Made by a program: the position numbers and the translations under genes
Virus record (IMG/VR): IMGVR_UViG_3300042351_000809
Length of the DNA: 64,000 nucleotides
Reading direction: 5' to 3' (one strand)
From: a virus
The notes under the pieces: model-generated
Seen by the model: the letters and a program-made list of their open reading frames with translations, nothing else
Told to the model about the DNA's origin: nothing
Database searches by the model: none
In this document: positions 590 through 42,176 of the stretch, piece after piece
Layout of the letters: each line of letters opens with the position of its first letter
Position numbering within the stretch: position 1 is the stretch's first letter

Positions 590-842
590 GTTTTTCCTTT
601 TTTATCGTAATTATTTCATTGAACTGTTTCTTTGTATATTCAACGCCACTTAAAAACCAGCGTTTTAAACCATTATTTAGGACAATTGCTGGCCCATTTT
701 CATTATGAAGTTGATCGTTTATAAACCAACACTTTGTGCCGTTGGCGAATTCTTCAGCAGGACCATTTTCATTATGAAGTTTACCCTTAAAAAACCAGCG
801 TTTGGTTCCTTGGTCATCAATTTTAACGGTATAAGTTTTCAT
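579..842 (-). CDS. Small LHNENGPA-repeat protein (phage hypothetical)
   Basis: Tandem W(F)xxxxLHNENGPA units separated by G.K.W, a repeat type common in large phages. Confidence 0.7.
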   Translation of the reverse strand: MKTYTVKIDDQGTKRWFFKGKLHNENGPAEEFANGTKCWFINDQLHNENGPAIVLNNGLKRWFLSGVEYTKKQFNEIITIKKEKHGN

Positions 843-847
843 GTAGA

Positions 848-2716
848 TTAAACTTTTTTAAATTGAGAAGTATCAATTGTCTTATCGTAAGTTCGTAGTT
901 CAGTATTAAAGAATAGCCACATAACAAACCTACGAAAATAAGTGGGTTCACGATATATGCTCACTTCAATGGTTGAATCTGGAAAATACCACGCATATCT
1001 TTCTATAACTTTATATTTCATATTTAACTTATTATGGATTGCTGACATTAATTTACATTAGGTGTGGCGGGTATTTGGCCTGATGCTGGTTCATTGAGGC
1101 CAATTGATTTTTCTAGTTCTATGGCTCTTGAATTGATTGCAAACGTCGCAGATTGTATTGCGTCATTATTTGTTTTAATAAATGAAACTACAGCATTGGT
1201 AGCGTTGGACAATCGATAAAGAGCATGGTATAAATTGTCTAGTTCGTTATCTTTATGTTCTTTTGCGATAAATTTATCGGATTGACCATCATACATTTCA
1301 GAATAATTTACTTCTGCTTCATTTGCGATAGATTCAGCTTTTAGTTGAATTTCTGGATTATTCACAATAAACTTGTTGGATTGGGTTTCGTTATTCATAT
1401 TTTTGGATTTTACTAGTTTAGACAGTCTTAACCAGAACAGTCTACACTAGATATACGTTGCGAGCCGAGTGAATCTTTCAAGGTTTTTTGACTTTTTTCA
1501 ATCTTTTCCCATAATGCGGAACTGGTAGCCTTCAGTGCCAAAAATGTCATCGTGATTAGTTTGAACTTCACCCATTAATACCAGCAACTCATTCCAAGTG
1601 TCATCTATTACCTTTTCATCTTCCTTGGCATCAAGATTCTCTGCCCATTCAGCGAGATTCTTGAAGGCATCGACTAGGTTCTTCTTATCGTATTTGTATT
1701 TCATATTATTTAATCTATAAATCCATTTACTTGTTTATTTTTCCACGTTTCAAGATTTTTGACTTGATTTTCGAGGTTATCAACTGACTTGCGCGAAGAT
1801 ACATCATACAAGGCCCAGTTGTCAATACCTTGTTTCTTGAAATAATTTCCAAGGAGCAGGGCTGCGTCCTTGACTTCTTGAGGAATTTCTCTCCACAAAT
1901 TATCTGGAGTCATATTTTATTAAAATATTAAAGCATTTCTAAATTTAGAATTAATGTAACTCTTAACTCTGTCAAAGCCATTATCAATTTGTATAACTTC
2001 GACCTTAAAAGTTAATTTAGTTTTAGTAAAAGGCTTTTTAGTTTCATGATCTAGTGGCGAAGTAGTCAACAGAACTTTACCATCAAATTTGCCCATTAAA
2101 TAATCATTATTGATATCTTCTCCATCTAAGTTCAAAAAGATAGGTCTACCATCCATAAAACCAGATGCAAATGTAATATCAAATAACTTTTCTACTTTCT
2201 CCACGCAACCTAGACCAAGTTCGTCAATTATTTTTTCAAGAGTTTCTTTATTTTCCTCTTCATCCTCAGAAGTAAAATTAAAAGAGTAGGTATGAGTTGT
2301 TTTCATTTTTCGTTCTGATAATTAAATAAAATCAACTTCACCTTATTCACTTTAATACCACACCTTTTTGCAATCTTATGGTATGCCATATTATGCTCAA
2401 GTCTAAGATGCAATACGTTCATCATTATAATTAAGTCTTGTGCGTCTTTGGCTTCGTTATAAGCTCCGCTGGCATGGGAATAAAGATTAGAGAGTGTTAC
2501 TACGTCCATATTAATTGTAAGGTTATATTATTTTTATTCTTCTTTGTTCATTTCTTTCAATTCCTTAACCAATTCAAACAAAGAATCAATTTCAGTAAAA
2601 GTGCCACTAGTGACACAATGTTCACTGAATGTTTTTTTGTCAAGTATATAGCACAAGGCTTTAATGTTGTGGCTTAAGGTTACAATTTTTAATTTATTTT
2701 CATCTGTCATTTTCAT
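848..2716 (-). other. Run of small hypothetical phage ORFs (848-1048, 1048-1398, 1498-1704, 1710-1913, 1920-2306, 2303-2509, 2534-2716)
   Basis: Abutting or overlapping same-strand ORFs of 60-130 aa with no recognisable motifs. Confidence 0.6.
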
Positions 2717-10848: not shown

Positions 10849-11874
10849 TCATTTGTAAATTTCAATGACTTCGAGTAAATTTGTTACAAAGAATTCCTTA
10901 TTAAGTCTACAAGCGTCCTCACTTGCCTTTTTCCCCTTTGCTTCTACGATGCTTGGGTTATTATAGGCGAACCTCATGGATTCTATCAAGTGTTCTTCAT
11001 CATATTTTGACCATTTTGCGCCGGGAGCTTTCCAGAATCCTTCGGCAGGAACTTCTTTATAATTAACATAAAAAGAATTATCTTCTGTCATAAACTCAGA
11101 AAGCCCAGCATAATTAGCAGCAATAACTGGTCTTCCGCAAGCCATACTTTCGTGCTGCATTAACCCCCAGCCTTCTGCACTCACGCAAGAAACAAAGCAA
11201 TCGTTGCTAGAATACCATGATTTTAATTGTTCTTTAGTATAAAACTCTTTGCAAACTTCTATCTTATTAGAAGCAAAAACTTTATCGTAACTTTCTTTTG
11301 GAGATATTTTTATTTTAAGTTGTACGTCTTTTTTATCTGGGAAAGCTTTAGTAAAACATCTAACAACATCTTCTAATCTTTTACGAGGATCTTTATTGCC
11401 TGTTCCAAATACAAATCTATCTTTAATTATGGGAGCTTGATAATTAAATATTTCGGTATCAACAAATAGATTAACAACATGAATAGGAACTTCGCATCCT
11501 TGTCTCTGGAAATTTAACTTGTTCCACTGGTTGGGGACGATCACTGCCTTCATGTTATTCATCTGTTCGATGAATATTTCATTGATCCTTGTACTTTCCC
11601 ACATCGTGAACATTACTCTTTCTTTTTTAGGATTTAAGAAAAAGACAAAGTTTGAGAAATTTAACTCGTTACATGGAGGAATAATTAGTAAATCAAGGTC
11701 TTCTTTGAAAGCAGGAATATTCTCAAAATATTTCTCAAATTTACCTGCATCACTAGAAAAAGACTTTGGTTTTATTAAACAGTTATGCTTTGGAAGCTCA
11801 GAAAGTATACAGTCAATCAAGGTGTTGTAACCTGATTCAAAGTCAAAAAAAGTAGAAATACTTAATTTAATCAT
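10849..11874 (-). CDS. Glycosyltransferase family 4 (GT-B)
   Basis: MWEST, PRKRLED, SAEGWGLMQHESMACGRPVI. Confidence 0.9.
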   Translation of the reverse strand: MIKLSISTFFDFESGYNTLIDCILSELPKHNCLIKPKSFSSDAGKFEKYFENIPAFKEDLDLLIIPPCNELNFSNFVFFLNPKKERVMFTMWESTRINEIFIEQMNNMKAVIVPNQWNKLNFQRQGCEVPIHVVNLFVDTEIFNYQAPIIKDRFVFGTGNKDPRKRLEDVVRCFTKAFPDKKDVQLKIKISPKESYDKVFASNKIEVCKEFYTKEQLKSWYSSNDCFVSCVSAEGWGLMQHESMACGRPVIAANYAGLSEFMTEDNSFYVNYKEVPAEGFWKAPGAKWSKYDEEHLIESMRFAYNNPSIVEAKGKKASEDACRLNKEFFVTNLLEVIEIYK

Positions 11875-12476
11875 TTAATAAAATACCAAGATCCGAACCA
11901 CTCATATCTAGTCGTTTGTAAAGAATAATTATTTTGACTGCAAAATTCGTCTACCGCTGGATTGACTCCGAAGGTAGCCAGTTTTACTCCTGCTTCATTA
12001 AAAACATACTTGTCTATTCCGTTTGGAGCTAAATCAGCAAGGTCTTGCCAGTTATTAAAATAATCGTGTCCAGACAGGATTCCACCATTTCTGACTTTTG
12101 GGAACCAAGTTTCAATATCTGATTTAACAAAGCTATACTTATGATTAGCATCAATATAAACAAAATCTAAAGATTCATTCTCGAAATCACTTGCTGCAAG
12201 TGGAGATTTCTTTCTCACTATTGAATAACGAGATGTGTATCCTGATAAATTACTAGCGCAAATATAAAGATTTGATTCATGATCTTCAGAGTTTGATATG
12301 TCTTCATATTCTTGTGGATCTTGCATTGCCCAAGGGTCTACTAAATATAAATGCCCAAGATACTTGGAAAGTATTGTTCTGGCGTGTTCTCCTTTGCCAA
12401 CTCCTACTTCTACGCCCTTACCTAAAACATTTTTTTCTTGAAACAAAGCGGATAGTTCTTGTCTGTATTTAATCAT
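11871..12476 (-). CDS. Class I SAM-dependent methyltransferase (Methyltransf_24-like)
   Basis: GVEVGVGKG, LVDPW, DFVYIDANH, GGILSGHDY. Confidence 0.9.
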   Translation of the reverse strand: MIKYRQELSALFQEKNVLGKGVEVGVGKGEHARTILSKYLGHLYLVDPWAMQDPQEYEDISNSEDHESNLYICASNLSGYTSRYSIVRKKSPLAASDFENESLDFVYIDANHKYSFVKSDIETWFPKVRNGGILSGHDYFNNWQDLADLAPNGIDKYVFNEAGVKLATFGVNPAVDEFCSQNNYSLQTTRYEWFGSWYFIK

Positions 12477-20210: not shown

Positions 20211-20561
20211 ATTAATTATTAGTATTTAATAGTTTCTGATAACCGTCTTCAACCGTCGAGAAAAACTTCTTCTGAAGGTAAAGACCCTCTACTGTCTGCT
20301 CTTTATCTTCCAAAGTCAAGGGATTAAACTGCTCTATTGTGAAATTTCCTTCTGCATCTTCAGTGTAATTTGCGAACATTACATTAAAATGCTTATAAGT
20401 CAAATTATCTTCAGCATCTTTAAATTCACCAGAGATATAAAACGTAGAGCTTTCATCCCATGCGCCATCTTTTCGAAGGCAGACGCAAATTCTAGAGTTT
20501 ATTTCGTCTATCTTGCCTCGAAATAAGAAGGCGTTTATTTTTTGTATCATAAAAATTGGAG

Positions 20562-25513: not shown

Positions 25514-26470
25514 TTATTTAATCCACTTTTGTTCTTTTAGAATTTCGTCTATTAAATCTTTTTCATGGCTGTCCATTTCTTTATCGAATCTCTTTAAGGC
25601 TTCTGTTATTGGATAAACTCTATCTGGAAATTCTTTTTGTCTTTCTTTAAGATCTTGGATAACGTCAACAATCTTAACAAGTGGTGCTTTAAATTCTTCT
25701 ACTTTGTCTTTTGAAGTGAAATTAGACATTTCAAAAGCTTTAGGAGTTAAAGCTTTTAATACAGAAATCAATGCTGACCCTAACATATTAAAGATTGAAA
25801 ATGCAGCAGCGGCAGCAGGGTGAACTGTTGCTAGAAGACGAAGAATAACAAATAGGACTACAAATATAATAATTGTAGTTAATGTACTAATAATAAACTT
25901 CTTTAATCCCCATAATACAGCATTAAGACCAAACATTCCGCTCATTGAATCTAACACTGCTTTATTTTGATCTGCTTCTTTGGCGACTTCTTTGGCTTTG
26001 TCAGTTAGTTGCCAAAGTTGATCATCGTATTTTTGATTTAGCTCTGACTTTTCTTTCTGTAATTTATTAATTATGTCGTCGCGTTGAGCTAAAAGTTCTT
26101 CTCCTTTTTTGCGCTCTTCAACTAAAGCAGAGTTTAAAAGATCTACTGTAGTCTTTATTCTCTTCATTTCATCAATATGAGGAGAACCAACAATGGAGAT
26201 GACTCTTTCATTTAACTTTCTGGCAGTATCTACTTGAACGGGGGCATTAGTTATCTGATTGAGAGAATGTTGAATTCCGACAGAAAGACCAGAGGTTTGG
26301 ATTCTCTTGCCTTTGTCGTTTTTTTCTATTTCAACTAAAGTGCTATCTACCTTCTTTTCTTCTTTAGCAATGACCTTTTGATTGTCATCTATCTGTTTAG
26401 AAGGTTTAATTGTAGAGAAGCATCCCGTTAATACTAACAGGACAGAGAGTAACAATAGGGACTTCTTCAT
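25514..26470 (-). CDS. Lipoprotein with a long coiled coil and C-terminal TM segments (spanin-like candidate)
   Basis: Lipobox LTG-C at residue 17, K/E-rich heptads, hydrophobic stretch around residues 185-240. Confidence 0.6.
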   Translation of the reverse strand: MKKSLLLLSVLLVLTGCFSTIKPSKQIDDNQKVIAKEEKKVDSTLVEIEKNDKGKRIQTSGLSVGIQHSLNQITNAPVQVDTARKLNERVISIVGSPHIDEMKRIKTTVDLLNSALVEERKKGEELLAQRDDIINKLQKEKSELNQKYDDQLWQLTDKAKEVAKEADQNKAVLDSMSGMFGLNAVLWGLKKFIISTLTTIIIFVVLFVILRLLATVHPAAAAAFSIFNMLGSALISVLKALTPKAFEMSNFTSKDKVEEFKAPLVKIVDVIQDLKERQKEFPDRVYPITEALKRFDKEMDSHEKDLIDEILKEQKWIK

Positions 26471-35239: not shown

Positions 35240-35725
35240 TTACACTCCTGTACTTCCAAATCCGCCCGTTCTTTCGGTTGTAGACAAAGATTCAACCTGC
35301 TGCCAATCAACAGCATGATACTTTTCAATAATTAATTGAGCAATTCGGTCTCCAGCTTTAATATTAAAATCAAAACTTGAACCAGCGATATTTGGAGTAA
35401 GTCCCATCATGCTTGCAAGATCGATGCTTAGATTCATCAAGACAACTTTAACTTCTCCACGATAGCTAGAGTCTACAACGCCAGCAAGGACATCAATACC
35501 ATTCTTAACTGCCAAGCCGCTGCGAGGAGCAATTCTAGCGTAGTAACCTTGAGGCACTTCAACCGAAAGCCCAGTGCTAACGAGAGCGCGACTCATAGGC
35601 TTAATTCTTACATTCTCGGTTGCGTAAAGATCGTAGCCAGCATCTCCAGTCTTTTGACGAGACGGGACAATTGCTAGATTGTTTAGTTTAACGAATTTAA
35701 CTGTGACTATTGTTTCTATATCCAT
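35240..35725 (-). CDS. dut: Trimeric dUTPase
   Basis: AGYDL, PRSGLA, GVVDSSYRGE, GDRIAQL, RTGGFGSTG. Confidence 0.97.
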   Translation of the reverse strand: MDIETIVTVKFVKLNNLAIVPSRQKTGDAGYDLYATENVRIKPMSRALVSTGLSVEVPQGYYARIAPRSGLAVKNGIDVLAGVVDSSYRGEVKVVLMNLSIDLASMMGLTPNIAGSSFDFNIKAGDRIAQLIIEKYHAVDWQQVESLSTTERTGGFGSTGV

Positions 35726-36174
35726 AATTGTAAATGAGATTTGATTTTAGAAAGGCTTTCAGGATTTAATTCCTTATAGTAAATTTTGTAATATTCAAAT
35801 ATTTCTTTGAACTTGTTACATTGATCGTATTCCTTAATATAAAATACTCTTTGAATTTCATGAGAAACTATATCCTTCGCGCAAGCGAAGCAAGGCGATA
35901 TCGTCAAACATATAGTATCTGCATCTCCTTTTCTTATCAAAGACAAGGCGTTGGTTTCTGCGTGGAGCATTATTTCGCGCTTCTTAGGGCGATTTTTCTC
36001 CTCCTTCATCCAATCTTTAACAGGGAAGCCTTTTTTAAGACCATTGTACCCTGTTGAAATTATTCTGCCTTCTTTATTTAAGATGCAAGCTCCAACCTTG
36101 GTGTGCGGATCTTCACTTCTAGACGAAGCAGCAAGAGCCATCATGCACCCGTACTCATGCCAAGAAAGTCTCAT
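35716..36174 (-). CDS. dCMP deaminase (start corrected to MRLSWHEYG)
   Basis: RSEDP.TKVGACI, TGYNG, HAETNAL, SPCFAC. Confidence 0.92.
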   Translation of the reverse strand: MRLSWHEYGCMMALAASSRSEDPHTKVGACILNKEGRIISTGYNGLKKGFPVKDWMKEEKNRPKKREIMLHAETNALSLIRKGDADTICLTISPCFACAKDIVSHEIQRVFYIKEYDQCNKFKEIFEYYKIYYKELNPESLSKIKSHLQLWI

Positions 36175-36181
36175 GGAAAGT

Positions 36182-36246
36182 ATTCTCGCTGGAGCAAAAC
36201 AAAAGATCAAGTTTATTTGGACCTTTTTCTGGCATTCTTGTATCAT
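36182..36246. promoter_or_regulatory. Back-to-back sigma70-type promoters at the strand switch (minus: TTGATC-17-GAGAAT; plus: TGGACC-17-TATCAT)
   Basis: Both have 17-nt spacers and end 5-7 nt before the ATGs at 36174 and 36252. Confidence 0.55.
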
Positions 36247-36251
36247 TGATT

Positions 36252-36671
36252 ATGACAATCGCTGACGCTTCAATTAAGTTATACCAATGGTATTTTAAAA
36301 ATGATAGTTTTTGTGAAAATGATTTTATAAAGATTCTTGAGATTTCTGAACAACCCGAATCTGAAAGAGCTTGCATTTTGTGCGCTCTTGAAGAATTTGA
36401 GAAAAATGGAGTCGTAAAGAAGGCTCTCTTTAATGAAAATAATTATTGGATTCTTTCTAAGAAGTTTGATGCCTATGAGCAGAATGTCATAATTTCTCCT
36501 AAAACTGCTTTCATAATCGCAGAAATTATTAATTCTTACTGCGCTTTAATTGAAAACGAATCTGAAAGATGCAACCCTGCTTCAGTCAGCGAGAAGGACA
36601 TCAAGAACCTTCTGGTCATCTTCAACGAGATGCGCGAAAAGATTTTTGACAAAACCAAAAACCCTGAATAG
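36252..36671 (+). CDS. Hypothetical protein, first gene of the plus-strand arm
   Basis: ORF starting at ATG 36252 just after a -10 box. Confidence 0.6.
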   Translation: MTIADASIKLYQWYFKNDSFCENDFIKILEISEQPESERACILCALEEFEKNGVVKKALFNENNYWILSKKFDAYEQNVIISPKTAFIIAEIINSYCALIENESERCNPASVSEKDIKNLLVIFNEMREKIFDKTKNPE

Positions 36672-36674
36672 GAT
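36646..36674 (+). promoter_or_regulatory. Sigma70-type promoter TTGACA-17-TAGGAT driving the putative ncRNA
   Basis: Perfect -35 at 36646-36651, -10 at 36669-36674; no ORF follows for ~450 nt. Confidence 0.75.
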
Positions 36675-36679
36675 GAGCT

Positions 36680-36912
36680 AGTTCTTTGTCTGGGTGAATA
36701 GCCTACTGGGGAGATCCCAGTTTGAACGCATCAGAGACATCAGGCCCGTAAAAAGACCCTAGTCAACTGGATCTAAGAAATCCAACGCCATTTCGGGAAA
36801 AGGCGACGTTCCGCAAGGAGAAGACTTTGAAAAAGCTGAAACCTCATTTTTCTCAAAAGAAAAAGCTGGCAGTTCGTCCTAAAATAAATCCCACCCGTGA
36901 AGACAAAGAACT
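36680..36912 (+). ncRNA. Putative structured non-coding RNA of unknown family (possibly extends to ~36975)
   Basis: Perfect 12-bp terminal helix AGTTCTTTGTCT(36680-91)/AGACAAAGAACT(36901-12), extended by GGGTG/CACCC; several internal hairpins including a GCAA tetraloop; the 5' end matches the predicted transcription start. Confidence 0.65.
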
Positions 36913-37126
36913 TAAACAAAGAGTTAGTCATTAGCTAGGCTTTCTTGAGAAGGCCGAAGACCTGCGAAACAGGCTGCGAAGGATTGAAATGGGTAGCTCT
37001 TGATTATTTTAAAACTCTATAATTATTTTTAGAGATGACAGCCTTTTCCTATTTTAACTCAAAGAAAAATCATAAAGCTGGCAGTTCTCTTTACAAACAC
37101 ATCTCTTCTAGATACTATGTTTTACT

Positions 37127-37759
37127 ATGTCTAACTTATTCCTAGGAATTGCTGGTGCTGCAACTGTAGGTAAGGATACTTACTATAGATTACTAAAGCA
37201 GATTTGCTCAGAAGAGTTTGGAGTGAATGTAATAAGATTTGCTCTTGCTGATTCGTTAAAGAGTGATTTGTATTCTTTGATCTTATATAAATACGGAGTT
37301 GACATTTTTAATTGCTCAACTGAGGATAAGAACAAGGTAAGGCATTTATTAGTAAGTCACGCTAGAGTAATGCGTCAAAATACTAAAGGCAGGTATTGGA
37401 TAGAAAAGCTTCAGTCTGAAATTGATGAGTACAAGAAATCTGAAAATTTTAAGCCTTCAGATATTTTTTGTGTAACAGATATTAGACACTTCGAATATTT
37501 AAAAGACGAAGTTGTTTGGATAAAGGAAGAAAATAAAGGAGTTTTAATTTATGTTGAAAAATATTTTTCAGACGGTTCAATTTGCAATCCTGCAAACGAT
37601 GACGAAAGCAGAAACGATCCCGCTCTTAGAGAACATTGCGATTATTTGCTTCGTTGGATGCATGGATCTGATGAACAAGCTTTGAAAATTTCCGTCAAAG
37701 AAAGTATTGACAACTTGATAAAACAAGGTAAGCTTTACGCACATGATAGACTCAACTGA
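37127..37759 (+). CDS. Deoxynucleoside monophosphate kinase-like P-loop protein
   Basis: GIAGAATVGKDT, ALADSLK, K...R.LL, YWI, VTDIRH...E; promoter TTTACA-17-TACTAT ends 8 nt upstream. Confidence 0.75.
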   Translation: MSNLFLGIAGAATVGKDTYYRLLKQICSEEFGVNVIRFALADSLKSDLYSLILYKYGVDIFNCSTEDKNKVRHLLVSHARVMRQNTKGRYWIEKLQSEIDEYKKSENFKPSDIFCVTDIRHFEYLKDEVVWIKEENKGVLIYVEKYFSDGSICNPANDDESRNDPALREHCDYLLRWMHGSDEQALKISVKESIDNLIKQGKLYAHDRLN

Positions 37760-38330
37760 CAATGAACTTGTAACGAAGGTAAAACTTCATCAATGCAACC
37801 AATCATTAAAGACTCTGATAGATAGGCATTCTCCTCTCTGTTTTGATATCTTTAAAAAATATAATAAGATTCTTCAAGAAAGAGGCGTAAGCCCAGAAGA
37901 TCTTGCTAATGAAAAAGATTACATTATTTACAAGTGTACTCTTAATTTTGATGAAACTCAAAATAGCAAATTCTCAACTTGGCTTGCTAACCACGTTAAA
38001 TACAAATGCTTAACAAACATTACTAAACATAAGTGGACGCTTTCCATAGATGATGAAAATCAAAAGAATCTTGTAGCAAATCTTAGTCAAGATACTAATG
38101 ATTTTGAAGAGAAGAAGGAGTACATTTTTAATCTCCTTTCTCAAATGAAAGATAAACGACTAGAGAAGATTATCATGTTGAGATACTATGGAGATAAGCC
38201 TTCTCGTAAGTGGAAAAATATTTCAAAAGAACTAGGCGTAACTTATCAGACAGCAATCACTTTACACAAAAAAGCTCTTGAGTTCTTGAAGACCAAAATA
38301 GAGAGTAAAGAAATGCAAGATTTCGTGTAA
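37743..38330 (+). CDS. Phage-encoded sigma70-family sigma factor
   Basis: D.ELV, L..RH..L, FD.....KFSTWL.N (region 2); II.LRY......W..I..ELGV.......LH.KAL..LK (region 4). Confidence 0.8.
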   Translation: MIDSTDNELVTKVKLHQCNQSLKTLIDRHSPLCFDIFKKYNKILQERGVSPEDLANEKDYIIYKCTLNFDETQNSKFSTWLANHVKYKCLTNITKHKWTLSIDDENQKNLVANLSQDTNDFEEKKEYIFNLLSQMKDKRLEKIIMLRYYGDKPSRKWKNISKELGVTYQTAITLHKKALEFLKTKIESKEMQDFV

Positions 38331-38380
38331 AAACACTTTACTTTTTTTGTCAGGACAGGTAGTATTTACTTGCATATCTT

Positions 38381-38731
38381 ATGCCTACTCCTAATACTAA
38401 CAATACTGACAGTAATTCAATTCGACGCGAACTTGGCGCACTTTGGAGCCGCAAAGGCTCTAGTGGTTCTGAGTATCTAACTGGTAAGTTCCGACTTAAG
38501 GACATCAAGGATAACTTTGATGAAGTTAAGATCATTGTGTTCCCAAACAACAAGAAGAAGAACGACGGGTCTCCCGATTTTCAGATCTTCATGGAAAAGG
38601 CTCAGTACGAGACTTTAACTGGAACTCAAGTTCCATCAAACAACAACACGACCCGCCTAGCATCCAAGCCTACCGCAAAGCCAGCGAAGGCCGCTGTCAG
38701 TCAAGTTAATTCAGATGATGATTTGATCTAA
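38381..38731 (+). CDS. DUF736-like protein (probable ssDNA-binding) with an acidic tail
   Basis: GALW.R.....EYL.G...IIVFPN..K....SPDF.I; C-terminal DDDLI. Confidence 0.7.
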   Translation: MPTPNTNNTDSNSIRRELGALWSRKGSSGSEYLTGKFRLKDIKDNFDEVKIIVFPNNKKKNDGSPDFQIFMEKAQYETLTGTQVPSNNNTTRLASKPTAKPAKAAVSQVNSDDDLI

Positions 38732-40208: not shown

Positions 40209-42176
40209 ATGAGCAAAGCTATTAACTTCCTAGACGAAATGGCGAACTTTACGTTCGTAACAAAATACGCAAAATATGACGAAAAGAAGAAGCGCAGAGA
40301 GACATGGGACGAGACTGTTACAAGAGTCGAGACCATGCACTTGAAGAGATTCAAGCATCTACCAAAAGAAGACAAGTATGAAATTTCAAGAGCTTTCGAC
40401 TTGGTTAGAGAAAGGAAGGTTACTCCTTCAATGCGTAGTATGCAATTCGGCGGTAAAGCGGTTGAAGCGCATAATGGAAGGATCTTTAATTGCGCTGTAC
40501 GTCATATTGATTCTATTCGTTCTTTTGCTGAATCTTTTTATACTTTGCTTTGTGGTACTGGCGTTGGATTTGGTATCACTGATAAGTTCCTCAATCGCTT
40601 ACCTGATCTCGTCAACGCTAAAGATAAGACTGGGACGGTAATCACCTATACAGTTAATGATAGCATTGAAGGGTGGGGCGACTCAATTGAAGCTTTGCTA
40701 AACTGCTATTTTAAGAATACCGCTTATTCTGGCCGCAAGATTGTATTTGATTACAGCAAAATTCGCCCAAAGGGAGCGAAGCTTAAGACTGGTGGAGGAA
40801 AGGCTCCCGGCTATAAAGGTCTCAAGAATTGCCATTTCAAGGTTAAGTTGCTGCTTGATACCATCATTGAAGATAGTAATCAAACCCGCCTTAAGACTGT
40901 CAATGCTTATGATATTTTGATGCATTGTGCTGATGCCGTATTGTCTGGAGGTATTCGCCGTTCTGCTTGCAGCGTTATCTTTGACGCTCAAGATAAGGAC
41001 ATGATGAATGCCAAGACTGGCAACTGGTTCCTTGATAACCCTCAGAGAGCTAGATCAAATAACTCTGCAATTATTATTCGCGGCAAGACTTCTTATGACG
41101 AGTTTGAAACTCTAATTAATAAGACTAAGGAATTTGGTGAGCCGGGATTCTTGTATGTTGTTGATGAGAATCAGCTTTTGAATCCTTGCTTTGAGATTTC
41201 TTTTATTCCAATTACTAAAGATGGACGTTGCGGATTCCAGTTCTGCAATCTCACTTCTATCAATGGAGCGAAAGTTAAGTCACTAGAAGATTTTAAAAAT
41301 GCTTCTTGGGCTGCGTCATTGATTGGAACGTTACAAGCTGCATATACGACCTTCCCTTATCTCGGTCATACTTCCGAAGAGTTGACCGAAGAGGAAGCTC
41401 TGCTTGGAGTTTCTATTACTGGAATGATGGATAATCCAGACATCCTTTTTAACCCAGAATACCAAAGAGAAGCAGCCAAGGTTTCAGTAAATACTAATAT
41501 TGAATGGGCTAAGAAGATTGGAATCAATCAGGCTTCTAGAGTTACTTGCATCAAGCCAGAGGGAACTAATTCCATTGTATTGTCTGCTGCTTCTGGAATT
41601 CATCCTCACCACGCTCGTAAGTACTTCCGCCGCATTCAGGTCAATAAGGAAGATAATGTCTATAAGTTCTTCAAGATGTTTAATGAACACGCTTGCGAAG
41701 AGAGCGTTTGGAGCGCAAATAAGGTTGATGATGTTATTACATTCCCTATTGAAGTAAGTGAGAATGTCAAGATTAAGTCTGAACTAAATGCAATTGAGCA
41801 TTTGGAACTTATTAAATTGACACAAACTAACTGGGTTAATTGCGGCACAACCGCTTCAAACAAGAAGCCATTGAACCATTCAGTTAGCTGCACCGTTATT
41901 GTTAAAGACGACGAGTGGAAGACCGTTACAGAGTACCTTTATAACAATCAAGAGTACTTTACTGCTGTTTCTTTGCTTCCTTATTCTGGAGACAAGATCT
42001 ATCAACAGGCTCCAATGGAAGCAATTGTAACGCCTGAAGATGAAGTTAAATTTAATAAGCTTCAAGAAGAGTGGTCAAAGGTTGACTTTACTAAACTTAT
42101 TGAAGATGAGGATGAAACTAGTCATACTCAGGAAGCTGCTTGTGCTGGCGGAAAATGTGAGCCAGTAAGTCTATAA
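40209..42176 (+). CDS. nrdJ: Class II (B12-dependent) ribonucleotide reductase, monomeric RTPR type
   Basis: FNCA, GTGVGF, GGIRRSA, NPCFEI, FCNL, TCIKPEGT, C-terminal CAGGKCE; no class I small subunit in the window. Confidence 0.9.
   Translation: MSKAINFLDEMANFTFVTKYAKYDEKKKRRETWDETVTRVETMHLKRFKHLPKEDKYEISRAFDLVRERKVTPSMRSMQFGGKAVEAHNGRIFNCAVRHIDSIRSFAESFYTLLCGTGVGFGITDKFLNRLPDLVNAKDKTGTVITYTVNDSIEGWGDSIEALLNCYFKNTAYSGRKIVFDYSKIRPKGAKLKTGGGKAPGYKGLKNCHFKVKLLLDTIIEDSNQTRLKTVNAYDILMHCADAVLSGGIRRSACSVIFDAQDKDMMNAKTGNWFLDNPQRARSNNSAIIIRGKTSYDEFETLINKTKEFGEPGFLYVVDENQLLNPCFEISFIPITKDGRCGFQFCNLTSINGAKVKSLEDFKNASWAASLIGTLQAAYTTFPYLGHTSEELTEEEALLGVSITGMMDNPDILFNPEYQREAAKVSVNTNIEWAKKIGINQASRVTCIKPEGTNSIVLSAASGIHPHHARKYFRRIQVNKEDNVYKFFKMFNEHACEESVWSANKVDDVITFPIEVSENVKIKSELNAIEHLELIKLTQTNWVNCGTTASNKKPLNHSVSCTVIVKDDEWKTVTEYLYNNQEYFTAVSLLPYSGDKIYQQAPMEAIVTPEDEVKFNKLQEEWSKVDFTKLIEDEDETSHTQEAACAGGKCEPVSL

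Follow-up and report, generated by a model that had tools for sequence, protein, structure and literature searches.

Only few families of large structured non-coding RNAs (ncRNAs) such as GOLLD and ROOL, which are often found in phages and prophages, or OLE and raiA, their bacterial counterparts, are known and the function of such RNAs constitutes a main open problem of bacterial RNA biology. Here, we describe a locus on the plus strand of IMG/VR virus record IMGVR_UViG_3300042351_000809, of which a stretch of 64,000 nucleotides (nt), referred to as “the window” throughout, was analysed. It very probably represents a real structured RNA family which is so far not catalogued in Rfam 15. The slot of this RNA gene is the interval 36672-37126, reaching from the end of an open reading frame (ORF) of 141 amino acids (aa), ORF141, to a deoxynucleoside monophosphate (dNMP)-kinase-like gene. 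Like GOLLD and ROOL, the RNA is a large ncRNA made up of many helices with junctions, a pseudoknot and conserved unpaired nucleotides, is phage-borne and was found by comparative metagenome analysis. It differs from them in its length, which amounts to 326-410 nt compared to roughly 580-800 nt, in not being located beside tRNA genes, in possessing a consensus sigma-70 promoter placed in the end of a gene and in harbouring an internal module which is duplicated at its 3' end. Multimers of GOLLD and ROOL seen by cryogenic electron microscopy are described in a preprint (bioRxiv 10.1101/2024.12.08.627333).

With 6S RNA, which is abundant, the element shares a sigma-70 promoter and ends which are paired into a closing stem. 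6S RNA, however, forms a rod with a central bubble mimicking open promoter DNA, whereas the present RNA is branched and pseudoknotted. In YrlA (Y-RNA-like) RNAs, some of which are phage-encoded, the 5' and 3' ends likewise form a long stem bearing a branched domain. Yet, the present RNA is not matched by any Rfam family and shows nothing recognisable as a T-loop-like tRNA mimic, and there is no Ro (rsr) gene among the neighbouring genes checked. A likeness to CsrB/RsmZ would lie in the proposed logic, that is, in repeated recognition elements for one factor. In contrast to the many GGA hairpin loops of CsrB/RsmZ, the present RNA offers two composite modules, each consisting of a hairpin and a 14-nt tail.

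Fold and conservation of the RNA

The core of the RNA folds into two domains which contain one four-way and one three-way junction and are joined by a pseudoknot of five base pairs (bp; Table 1). Domain 1 consists of a long closing stem, a hairpin arm, the four-way junction and hairpin P4. While the helices vary by compensation, the strands of the junctions are nearly invariant, and 93 of the 172 unpaired columns of the alignment do not vary at all. A preliminary description of the locus, made by a model from the letters of the window alone, had proposed an RNA of about 230 nt, which proved too short since the core measures at least 326 nt. Probably, the conserved structure continues beyond the core to about position 37087, which would amount to a total of about 410 nt.

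Relatives of the locus were gathered by means of a search with the kinase protein, which yielded 14 IMG/VR loci, and of exact core patterns, which yielded 19 metagenome loci, 11 of the 30 loci from the metagenome pattern scan being chance matches. Protein look-ups added L059, L070, L071/L072 and L073 (individual loci are designated by L and a number) plus relatives lacking the RNA. On IMG/VR, four core patterns retrieved the same 12 contigs in addition to chance matches in unrelated coding regions of L026 and L058. Among 50,697 phage records there was no match for the RNA region (blastn) or for the kinase gene (tblastn).

The preliminary description had looked to homologues for compensatory changes, and these are indeed present. 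With a covariance model built on the curated structure and designated R1, 20 loci are matched over their full length at scores of 252-414 bits. These 20 members, 19 of which are distinct, were re-aligned with it. The resulting alignment of the 19 distinct sequences contains 80 pairs in 13 helices, with standard pairing in 98.5% of the cells compared to 39-56% in slid controls. Both sides have changed in 35 of the 80 pairs (1-7 in slid controls), though these counts are inflated, most of all for P1 and P4 in L044, as the alignment was fitted to the model. None of 500 shuffles matched the observed pairing, the double changes or the covariation score. On plain MAFFT alignments, RNAalifold reports seven compensatory pairs and, with more sequences, 18. 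When every pair of columns of a MAFFT alignment was scanned without bias, the same helices and the pseudoknot came out as the top hits. As all members belong to one phage clade, the covariation reflects few independent lineages.

All helices named in the preliminary description are present. Compensatory changes are found in P1 and its continuation P1b as well as in P2a, P3a and P3c, while P3b shows one-sided changes only and P4 a shortening by one pair which is matched on both strands. Closure of a multiway junction by P3 is borne out by covariation in L059 and L070, so that the junction of the preliminary description is superior to that drawn by RNAalifold. A GAC/GTC mini-hairpin and an AGCUG/CAGUU helix suggested by RNAalifold were rejected because they are broken in L059 and L044; in L070, too, the mini-hairpin is broken. 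The two hairpins placed downstream of the predicted RNA (P5c and P5d) exist and carry compensatory changes; they are, however, not separate elements but lie inside the second domain, which is closed by P5 together with P5b. The GNRA loop of P3c is not universal since the corresponding loop of L071 reads UCAC. In L044 and L071/L072 the pseudoknot AAUCC/GGAUU is replaced by AGUUC/GAACU, which means that two pairs have changed on both sides and none is broken. Given the sister relationship of L044 and L071, these changes count as a single evolutionary event. Three other long-range complementarities do not vary at all and hence show no covariation, so that one pseudoknot only is supported in this way. 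Conserved G-U and U-G pairs, which on the opposite strand would turn into A-C mismatches, indicate that the plus strand is the RNA.

The folding energy is no better than that of shuffled sequences (z = -1.24 for the plus and -1.71 for the minus strand, each calculated for the single sequence), although the terminal helix of 12 bp and the hairpins inside it do appear in the minimum-energy fold. The case for an RNA is thus founded on covariation and conservation, not on stability.

In a sliding identity profile over 6.6 kb, the conservation of the locus peaks at 36700-36900, where identity amounts to 96-100% in all relatives profiled compared to 64-85% in the flanking coding DNA. L059, L071 and L044 are the most distant members. 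In L059 the RNA is 82% identical, whereas the values for orf141, the kinase and the sigma factor gene are 61%, 65% and 78% at the nucleotide level. The corresponding values are 71% versus 63%, 63% and 72% in L071, and 68% (lowered by a register shift of P1) versus 61%, 63% and 73% in L044. In L044 and L071, 73-75% of the unpaired positions are kept compared to 62-68% of the paired ones. Since the variation of the RNA tracks the phylogeny of its flanks, we take it to be under purifying selection rather than to result from a recent sweep of one DNA segment. The RNA was found in every member of one clade, with kinase identities between 100% and about 49%. As far as the searches reach, the family is confined to this one clade of uncultured freshwater phages, whose members encode rIIA, a DnaE-type polymerase, ribonucleotide reductase and a sigma factor of their own.

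Table 1. Coordinates of the RNA, its helices and modules, and of neighbouring features. Positions refer to the window unless a locus is given.
Feature	Position	Strand	Remarks
RNA core	36680-37005	+	326 nt; domain 1 at 36680-36912, domain 2 at 36919-37001
P1	36680-91/36901-12	+	12 bp; in the L035/L051 clade A-U replaces G-C and U-G replaces U-A
P1b	36692-96/36892-96	+	GGGTG/CACCC; GGGCG/CGCCC in L059
P2	36701-04/36742-45	+	one-sided change only, G-C to G-U in L071/L072; encloses P2a and an almost invariant single strand
P2a	36705-10/36716-21	+	ACTGGG/CCCAGT; A-U to G-C and C-G to U-A in L037, L045, L073
P3	36761-64/36823-26	+	closes the four-way junction; AGUC/GACU to AACC/GGUU in L059, L070
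P3a	36768-72/36780-84	+	UGGAU/AUCCA; UGAGC/GCUCA in L071; UAAGC/(A)CUUA in L044, four pairs retained (UAAG/CUUA)
P3b	36786-89/36802-05	+	CGCC/GGCG
P3c	36809-12/36817-20	+	TTCC-GCAA-GGAG; C-G to U-A with loop GCAA to GAAA in L044
P4	36847-53/36858-64	+	TTTTTCT/AGAAAAA; one pair lost on both strands in L059, L044, L071
P5	36919-26/36994-37001	+	closing helix of domain 2
P5b	36928-32/36988-92	+	extends P5; together 13 bp, 7 of 13 pairs changed on both sides
P5c	36938-44/36949-55	+	4 of 7 pairs changed on both sides
P5d	36961-64/36970-73	+	CCTG-CGAAA-CAGG; 3 of 4 pairs changed on both sides
Pseudoknot	36887-91/36981-85	+	AAUCC/GGAUU; 3' half in the conserved strand CUGCGAAGGAUUGAA of domain 2
3' extension	37006-37087	+	conserved; P6, invariant GAGAUGAC, module U2; probably part of the RNA
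P6	37015-19/37030-34	+	stem invariant, loop of 8-22 nt variable
Module U1	36847-36875	+	hairpin P4 and tail AAAGCUGGCAGUUC; GCTGGCAGTTC at 36865-75
Module U2	37051-37087	+	hairpin P4' (37051-55/37066-70) and AAAGCUGGCAGUUC; GCTGGCAGTTC at 37077-87
Putative promoter of the RNA gene	36646-36674	+	-35 TTGACA at 36646-51, 17-nt spacer, -10 TAGGAT at 36669-74; within the last codons and stop of ORF141
Promoter-like site of the kinase gene	37090-37118	+	TTTACA-17-TACTAT; immediately 3' of U2
ORF141	36246-36671	+	141 aa, no family match; 3' end contains the RNA promoter
dNMP-kinase-like gene	37127-37759	+	directly 3' of the RNA locus
Sigma factor gene	37743-38330	+	follows the kinase gene; about 0.75 kb downstream of the RNA
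Type B RNA-like element	L013:2539-2991; L063:2029-2500; L074, about 735-1255		slot between ORF141-like and kinase genes

Coding capacity and comparison with known RNA families

In agreement with the preliminary description, the interval offers no credible ORF, as none is conserved and indels of 1 nt at about 36831 and 36876, which separate lineages, shift the frames of the small ORFs. A single frame is open over 43-61 codons in most close relatives with its register differing between clades. The peptide of this mini-ORF is not conserved in L059, L044 and L071, and a search of 1.8 billion representative proteins returned only the 35-aa phage mini-ORF itself. A further ORF of 36 aa (37035-37145, plus strand), which starts at the invariant GAGATGAC, crosses the module copy and the kinase promoter and ends inside the kinase gene, is probably not a gene, being put out of frame or cut short by indels in L048, L037 and L059.

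An exact-pattern search of genome contigs gave no match with a first pattern, and with a second one only the end of a contig from the metagenome-assembled genome (MAG) of Planctomycetia bacterium WB6_1B_298 (RGDT01000092.1; L076:1-180). Over its last 97 nt, which lie in an open frame, this bacterial contig of 13.4 kb shows full identity to the 3' half of domain 1; the approximately 75 nt ahead of them consist of unrelated DNA of low GC content. The GC content of the terminal 170 nt or so is 33-43% compared to 56-60% elsewhere in the contig. As evidence for a host or for coding we rejected this contig end on account of its foreign GC content, of a peptide which has no relatives and of a frame which is not conserved in the phages. 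Most likely, it is chimeric. The open frame of the close relatives and the identical piece in the MAG would be the observations to invoke if the locus were not an RNA gene but a small protein gene, a piece of DNA recently spread by horizontal transfer or a set of DNA-binding sites. We regard this as exceedingly improbable, given that indels place the lineages in different frames, that the peptide is neither conserved nor matched by any protein other than itself, that the variation is compensatory and follows the phylogeny of the flanks and that the MAG contig end looks chimeric.

The statement that the RNA matches no known family likewise held in our scans. With Rfam 15 at gathering score, the window contains two tRNAs only, none of which lies at the RNA locus. 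ARAGORN places tRNAs at 20561 and 30841 only and finds neither a tRNA nor a tmRNA at the locus. On seven homologous or syntenic loci Rfam 15 reports nothing but tRNAs. There is no Rfam 15 match to RNase P RNA, signal recognition particle (SRP) RNA, group I or II introns, known riboswitches or ribozymes, nor to the GOLLD, ROOL, OLE or raiA models. A permissive scan of 36500-37150 (E ≤ 10) gave chance-level matches only. Among these, the model of snoR41, a eukaryotic C/D-box small nucleolar RNA, matches 36991-37083 with 22.7 bits compared to a gathering score of 40 (E 0.19), a resemblance which originates from UGAU.A and CUG. motifs and which we take as chance. Apart from this, there was a second match to snoR41 (E 0.39) and one to a plastid motif (E 7). 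With respect to retrons and other ncRNAs associated with reverse transcriptases, there is no reverse transcriptase among the neighbours (ORF141, the kinase-like gene and the sigma factor). Potential antisense targets which the RNA has in the window do not exceed chance level. A 13-nt stretch at 40559-40571 in the ribonucleotide reductase gene is perfectly complementary to 36778-36790 of the RNA (AAATCCAACGCCA), which is at chance level for an AT-rich window.

In its conservation, with a nearly invariant core of junction strands set into covarying helices and with a pseudoknot, the RNA resembles catalytic RNAs. The RNA might accordingly be thought of as a ribozyme which, for example, excises itself from the operon transcript or processes another RNA, the more so as its 3' end, for want of a terminator, must arise in some other way. 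Since no Rfam 15 ribozyme family matches and neither a cleavage site nor a reaction can be proposed from the sequence, we consider this very unlikely.

Promoters, neighbouring genes and occupancy of the slot

Besides rIIA and ribonucleotide reductase, the uncultured phage lineage from which the window derives encodes a sigma factor of its own, a DnaB-like helicase and a DnaE-like polymerase, the last of these being at most 31% identical to that of any cultured phage. Gene directions diverge at 36246, with the genes to the left of this point running leftward and those to the right running rightward. The operon 3' of the RNA comprises the dNMP-kinase-like gene, the sigma factor, a DUF736 gene, a glycosyltransferase and ribonucleotide reductase. 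As previously described, the RNA region is richer in GC than its surroundings (0.44-0.46 versus 0.31-0.35 in the flanks); the GC content of the phage is about 34%.

The sigma-70-like site which the preliminary description had placed ahead of the RNA is the top match of its kind in 35500-38500, agreeing at 10 of 12 positions. In the 12 lineages checked, the -35 hexamer reads TTGACA or, once, TTGATA, while the -10 hexamer reads TAGGAT, TAGTAT, TAGAAT or TAGCGT. The spacer varies in sequence with a length of 17 or 18 nt, and helix P1 starts 5-6 nt downstream of the -10 hexamer. The retention of TTGACA-N17/18-TAGNNT in all 12 lineages looks like the pattern of a real promoter, though its -35 part overlaps coding sequence. 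At the promoter-like site of the kinase gene, too, the hexamers are conserved while the spacer is variable in most lineages. Shine-Dalgarno-type sequences (GGAG, GAGG or AGGA) precede only three of the 50 genes of the window whose ORFs comprise at least 150 aa, so that the phage and presumably also its host largely do without such sites. As the phage almost never uses them, their lack ahead of the kinase gene is uninformative. The hexamer GTGTAA precedes several gene starts (genes at 11871-12476 and 25514-26470, both on the minus strand, and at 40209).

The cumulative GC skew turns at the divergence point 36246, from which the RNA is separated by about 430 nt, and promoter-driven priming transcripts operate at the origins of ColE1 and at oriF and oriG of T4. 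An element associated with a replication origin would thus have to be considered, located next to the strand-switch point and consisting either of a transcript which acts as structured primer or forms an R-loop, or of hairpins in the DNA together with protein sites. The promoter of the RNA, its repeated 14-mer and the differing sequences found at this site in relatives, as origins paired with their own initiators might show, would fit such an element. Yet, the turn of the GC skew coincides with the change of transcription direction and is therefore not an independent observation. Moreover, G-U pairs restricted to one strand, a GNRA-type loop and a pseudoknot are features of a folded RNA and not of sites in duplex DNA, and primer RNAs usually need no 90 or more invariant unpaired nucleotides. 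Finally, it would be odd for an essential origin that the close relatives L060 and L069 have no element whatsoever at this position. On balance, we judge an origin quite improbable.

The slot between the upstream ORF and the kinase gene is not always occupied in the same way. The RNA is absent from L060, where an ORF141-like ORF directly overlaps the kinase gene (L060:1115-2157), and from L061/L062, where a gap of only 126 nt is left (L061:3476-4624). It is likewise absent from L069 and L014, where an ORF of 61 aa lies next to the kinase gene (L069:54-862) and one of 265 aa abuts it (L014:2201-3606). The upstream ORF of L060 and L061 resembles ORF141 in size and position. Between its kinase and sigma-like genes, L060 contains an extra ORF of 154 aa.

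In other relatives of marine or other provenance, whose kinase is 35-39% identical, the slot harbours an RNA-like element which we designate type B. It resembles the present RNA in its slot, in the placement of a promoter in the end of an ORF (TTGACA/TTGACT-N17-TATACT/TACTAT), in its size class (about 400-450 nt) and in being GC-rich relative to its flanks, but has no detectable homology to it. Model R1, nhmmer and Rfam give no match to type B. Two distinct versions of it are 79% identical over an alignment of 532 columns, which includes short flanks, and differ in a compensatory manner; the z value of the fold is -2.6. In L063, a carrier of type B, TTGACA-N17-TAATTT is present ahead of the kinase gene. 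As the site may be empty, contain the RNA described here or contain an unrelated one, it appears to be a slot for interchangeable RNA genes.

These observations also bear on the suggestion of the preliminary description that the RNA might be a 6S-like decoy of host RNA polymerase which would help the phage sigma factor to replace sigma-70. An early promoter of the sigma-70 type, the short distance to the sigma factor gene and the long closing stem formed by the two ends of the RNA agree with such a role. However, not even at E ≤ 10 does any 6S model match within 36500-37150, and a branched fold of two domains connected by a pseudoknot differs from a rod with a bubble resembling an open promoter. 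In addition, a specific tie to the sigma factor gene is weakened by the fact that the kinase and sigma factor genes are kept in relatives without the RNA (L060, L061/L062, L069) or with an unrelated one (L013, L063). We therefore deem a 6S-like decoy highly improbable. The two other options of the preliminary description, a sponge for defence proteins and a replication primer, are conjectures.

Duplicated module and possible role of the RNA

Downstream of the core, the 3' extension contains P6, which is not a dimeric DNA site since the spacing between its two halves is too variable, and a second copy, U2, of the module U1 formed by hairpin P4 and its tail in domain 1. In every genome the tails of U1 and U2 match each other, both reading CAGUUC in ten lineages, UAAACG in L044 and CAAUUC in L071. 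In the same manner, P4 and P4' are both one pair shorter in the same genomes, namely L059, L044 and L071, P4' lacking one U and one A there. Such concerted change could be caused by a common binding partner or by gene conversion. No third segment of the RNA pairs with both module tails across all lineages. The segment AACUG at 36765-69 was considered as a partner of the tails since it fits CAGUU, as does AAUUG with respect to CAAUU in L071, but lacks support because it fails in L044 and competes with P3a.

The reading which we tentatively favour is that of a trans-acting, stand-alone accessory RNA which would bind a partner through its compact tertiary fold. Its own early promoter and the separate promoter-like site for the next gene, present in all lineages examined except L071, argue for a stand-alone RNA rather than a leader. 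Its presence, absence or replacement among relatives keeping the same operon suggests an accessory element. The invariant unpaired columns, the pseudoknot and the co-evolving duplicated module point to an action via tertiary structure and a specific partner. With its promoter being of the sigma-70 type, the RNA would presumably be transcribed early and by the RNA polymerase of the host. The duplicated module and the invariant junctions would serve to recognise the partner, most likely a phage or host protein, which the RNA would hold, titrate or scaffold during early infection.

Several points weigh against this assignment, beginning with the inflated pair counts, the small number of independent lineages and the single event behind the pseudoknot changes, which were described above. 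No partner protein has been identified, and gene conversion between direct repeats 212 nt apart would explain the concerted change of the two modules without any partner. The upstream ORF occurs both with and without the RNA. The start and the end of the transcript as well as its expression itself are inferred. No convincing terminator is present 3' of the RNA, the U-rich GAUUAUUUU which follows P5 not being kept in L036, L044, L059 and L071, and for lack of a kept terminator read-through into the kinase-sigma operon, and with it a role as leader, is conceivable. In L071, moreover, the -35 part of the kinase promoter is missing and U2 falls into the spacer, which leaves a weak site.

It is partly from these last observations that a cis-acting leader of the kinase-sigma operon, either similar to a riboswitch or a protein-dependent attenuator, draws its strength. 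In this case the core would sense a ligand or factor, while alternative pairings, made available by GAGAUGAC, which is invariant, together with the duplicated module, would decide whether transcription or translation proceeds. The RNA is located directly upstream of the operon on the same strand with no conserved terminator in between, within a nucleotide-metabolism cluster, and the kinase promoter of L071 is poor. Ligand-binding RNAs show likewise invariant junctions and covarying helices, and unrelated RNA classes at one gene position recall riboswitch classes controlling the same genes. With UUAGCU/AGCUGG as a further candidate, several perfectly conserved alternative pairings which involve the 3' extension can indeed be drawn between GUCAUU (36927-32) and GAUGAC (37034-39), which would compete with P5b, between UCAUUUU (36844-50) and GAGAUGA (37032-38) and between GGGAAA (36795-800) and UUUCCU (37045-50). 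These pairings, however, never vary and hence gain no support from covariation. Further, such control would in most lineages be bypassed by the promoter-like site which separates the RNA from the kinase gene, and 410 nt with at least 15 helices is far above the size of most known aptamers. Neither a terminator nor a helix sequestering the start codon was identified, and with hardly any use of Shine-Dalgarno sites (3/50 genes) there is no ribosome-binding site to hide. Hence, a leader appears rather unlikely to us.

A more far-reaching proposal would see in the RNA a new class of functional fold which either senses a ligand or protein or is catalytic. The two co-evolving modules, each composed of a hairpin and AAAGCUGGCAGUUC, would capture a factor governing the kinase-sigma operon, so that the early RNA would set the moment at which the phage sigma factor takes over from host sigma-70, and with type B the marine relatives would have solved this task independently. 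We consider this improbable.

Returning to the stand-alone accessory RNA, the significance of the family is limited by the lack of a cultured host and by its restriction, so far, to one clade. It is unusual in combining a defined promoter and a compact, pseudoknotted two-domain fold with a module which evolves in concert with its second copy. The near-invariance of the core across phages whose neighbouring proteins are as little as about 50% identical implies a precise molecular task in early infection. The varying occupancy of the slot suggests that phages may swap RNA genes as accessory modules in the same way as they do with protein genes.

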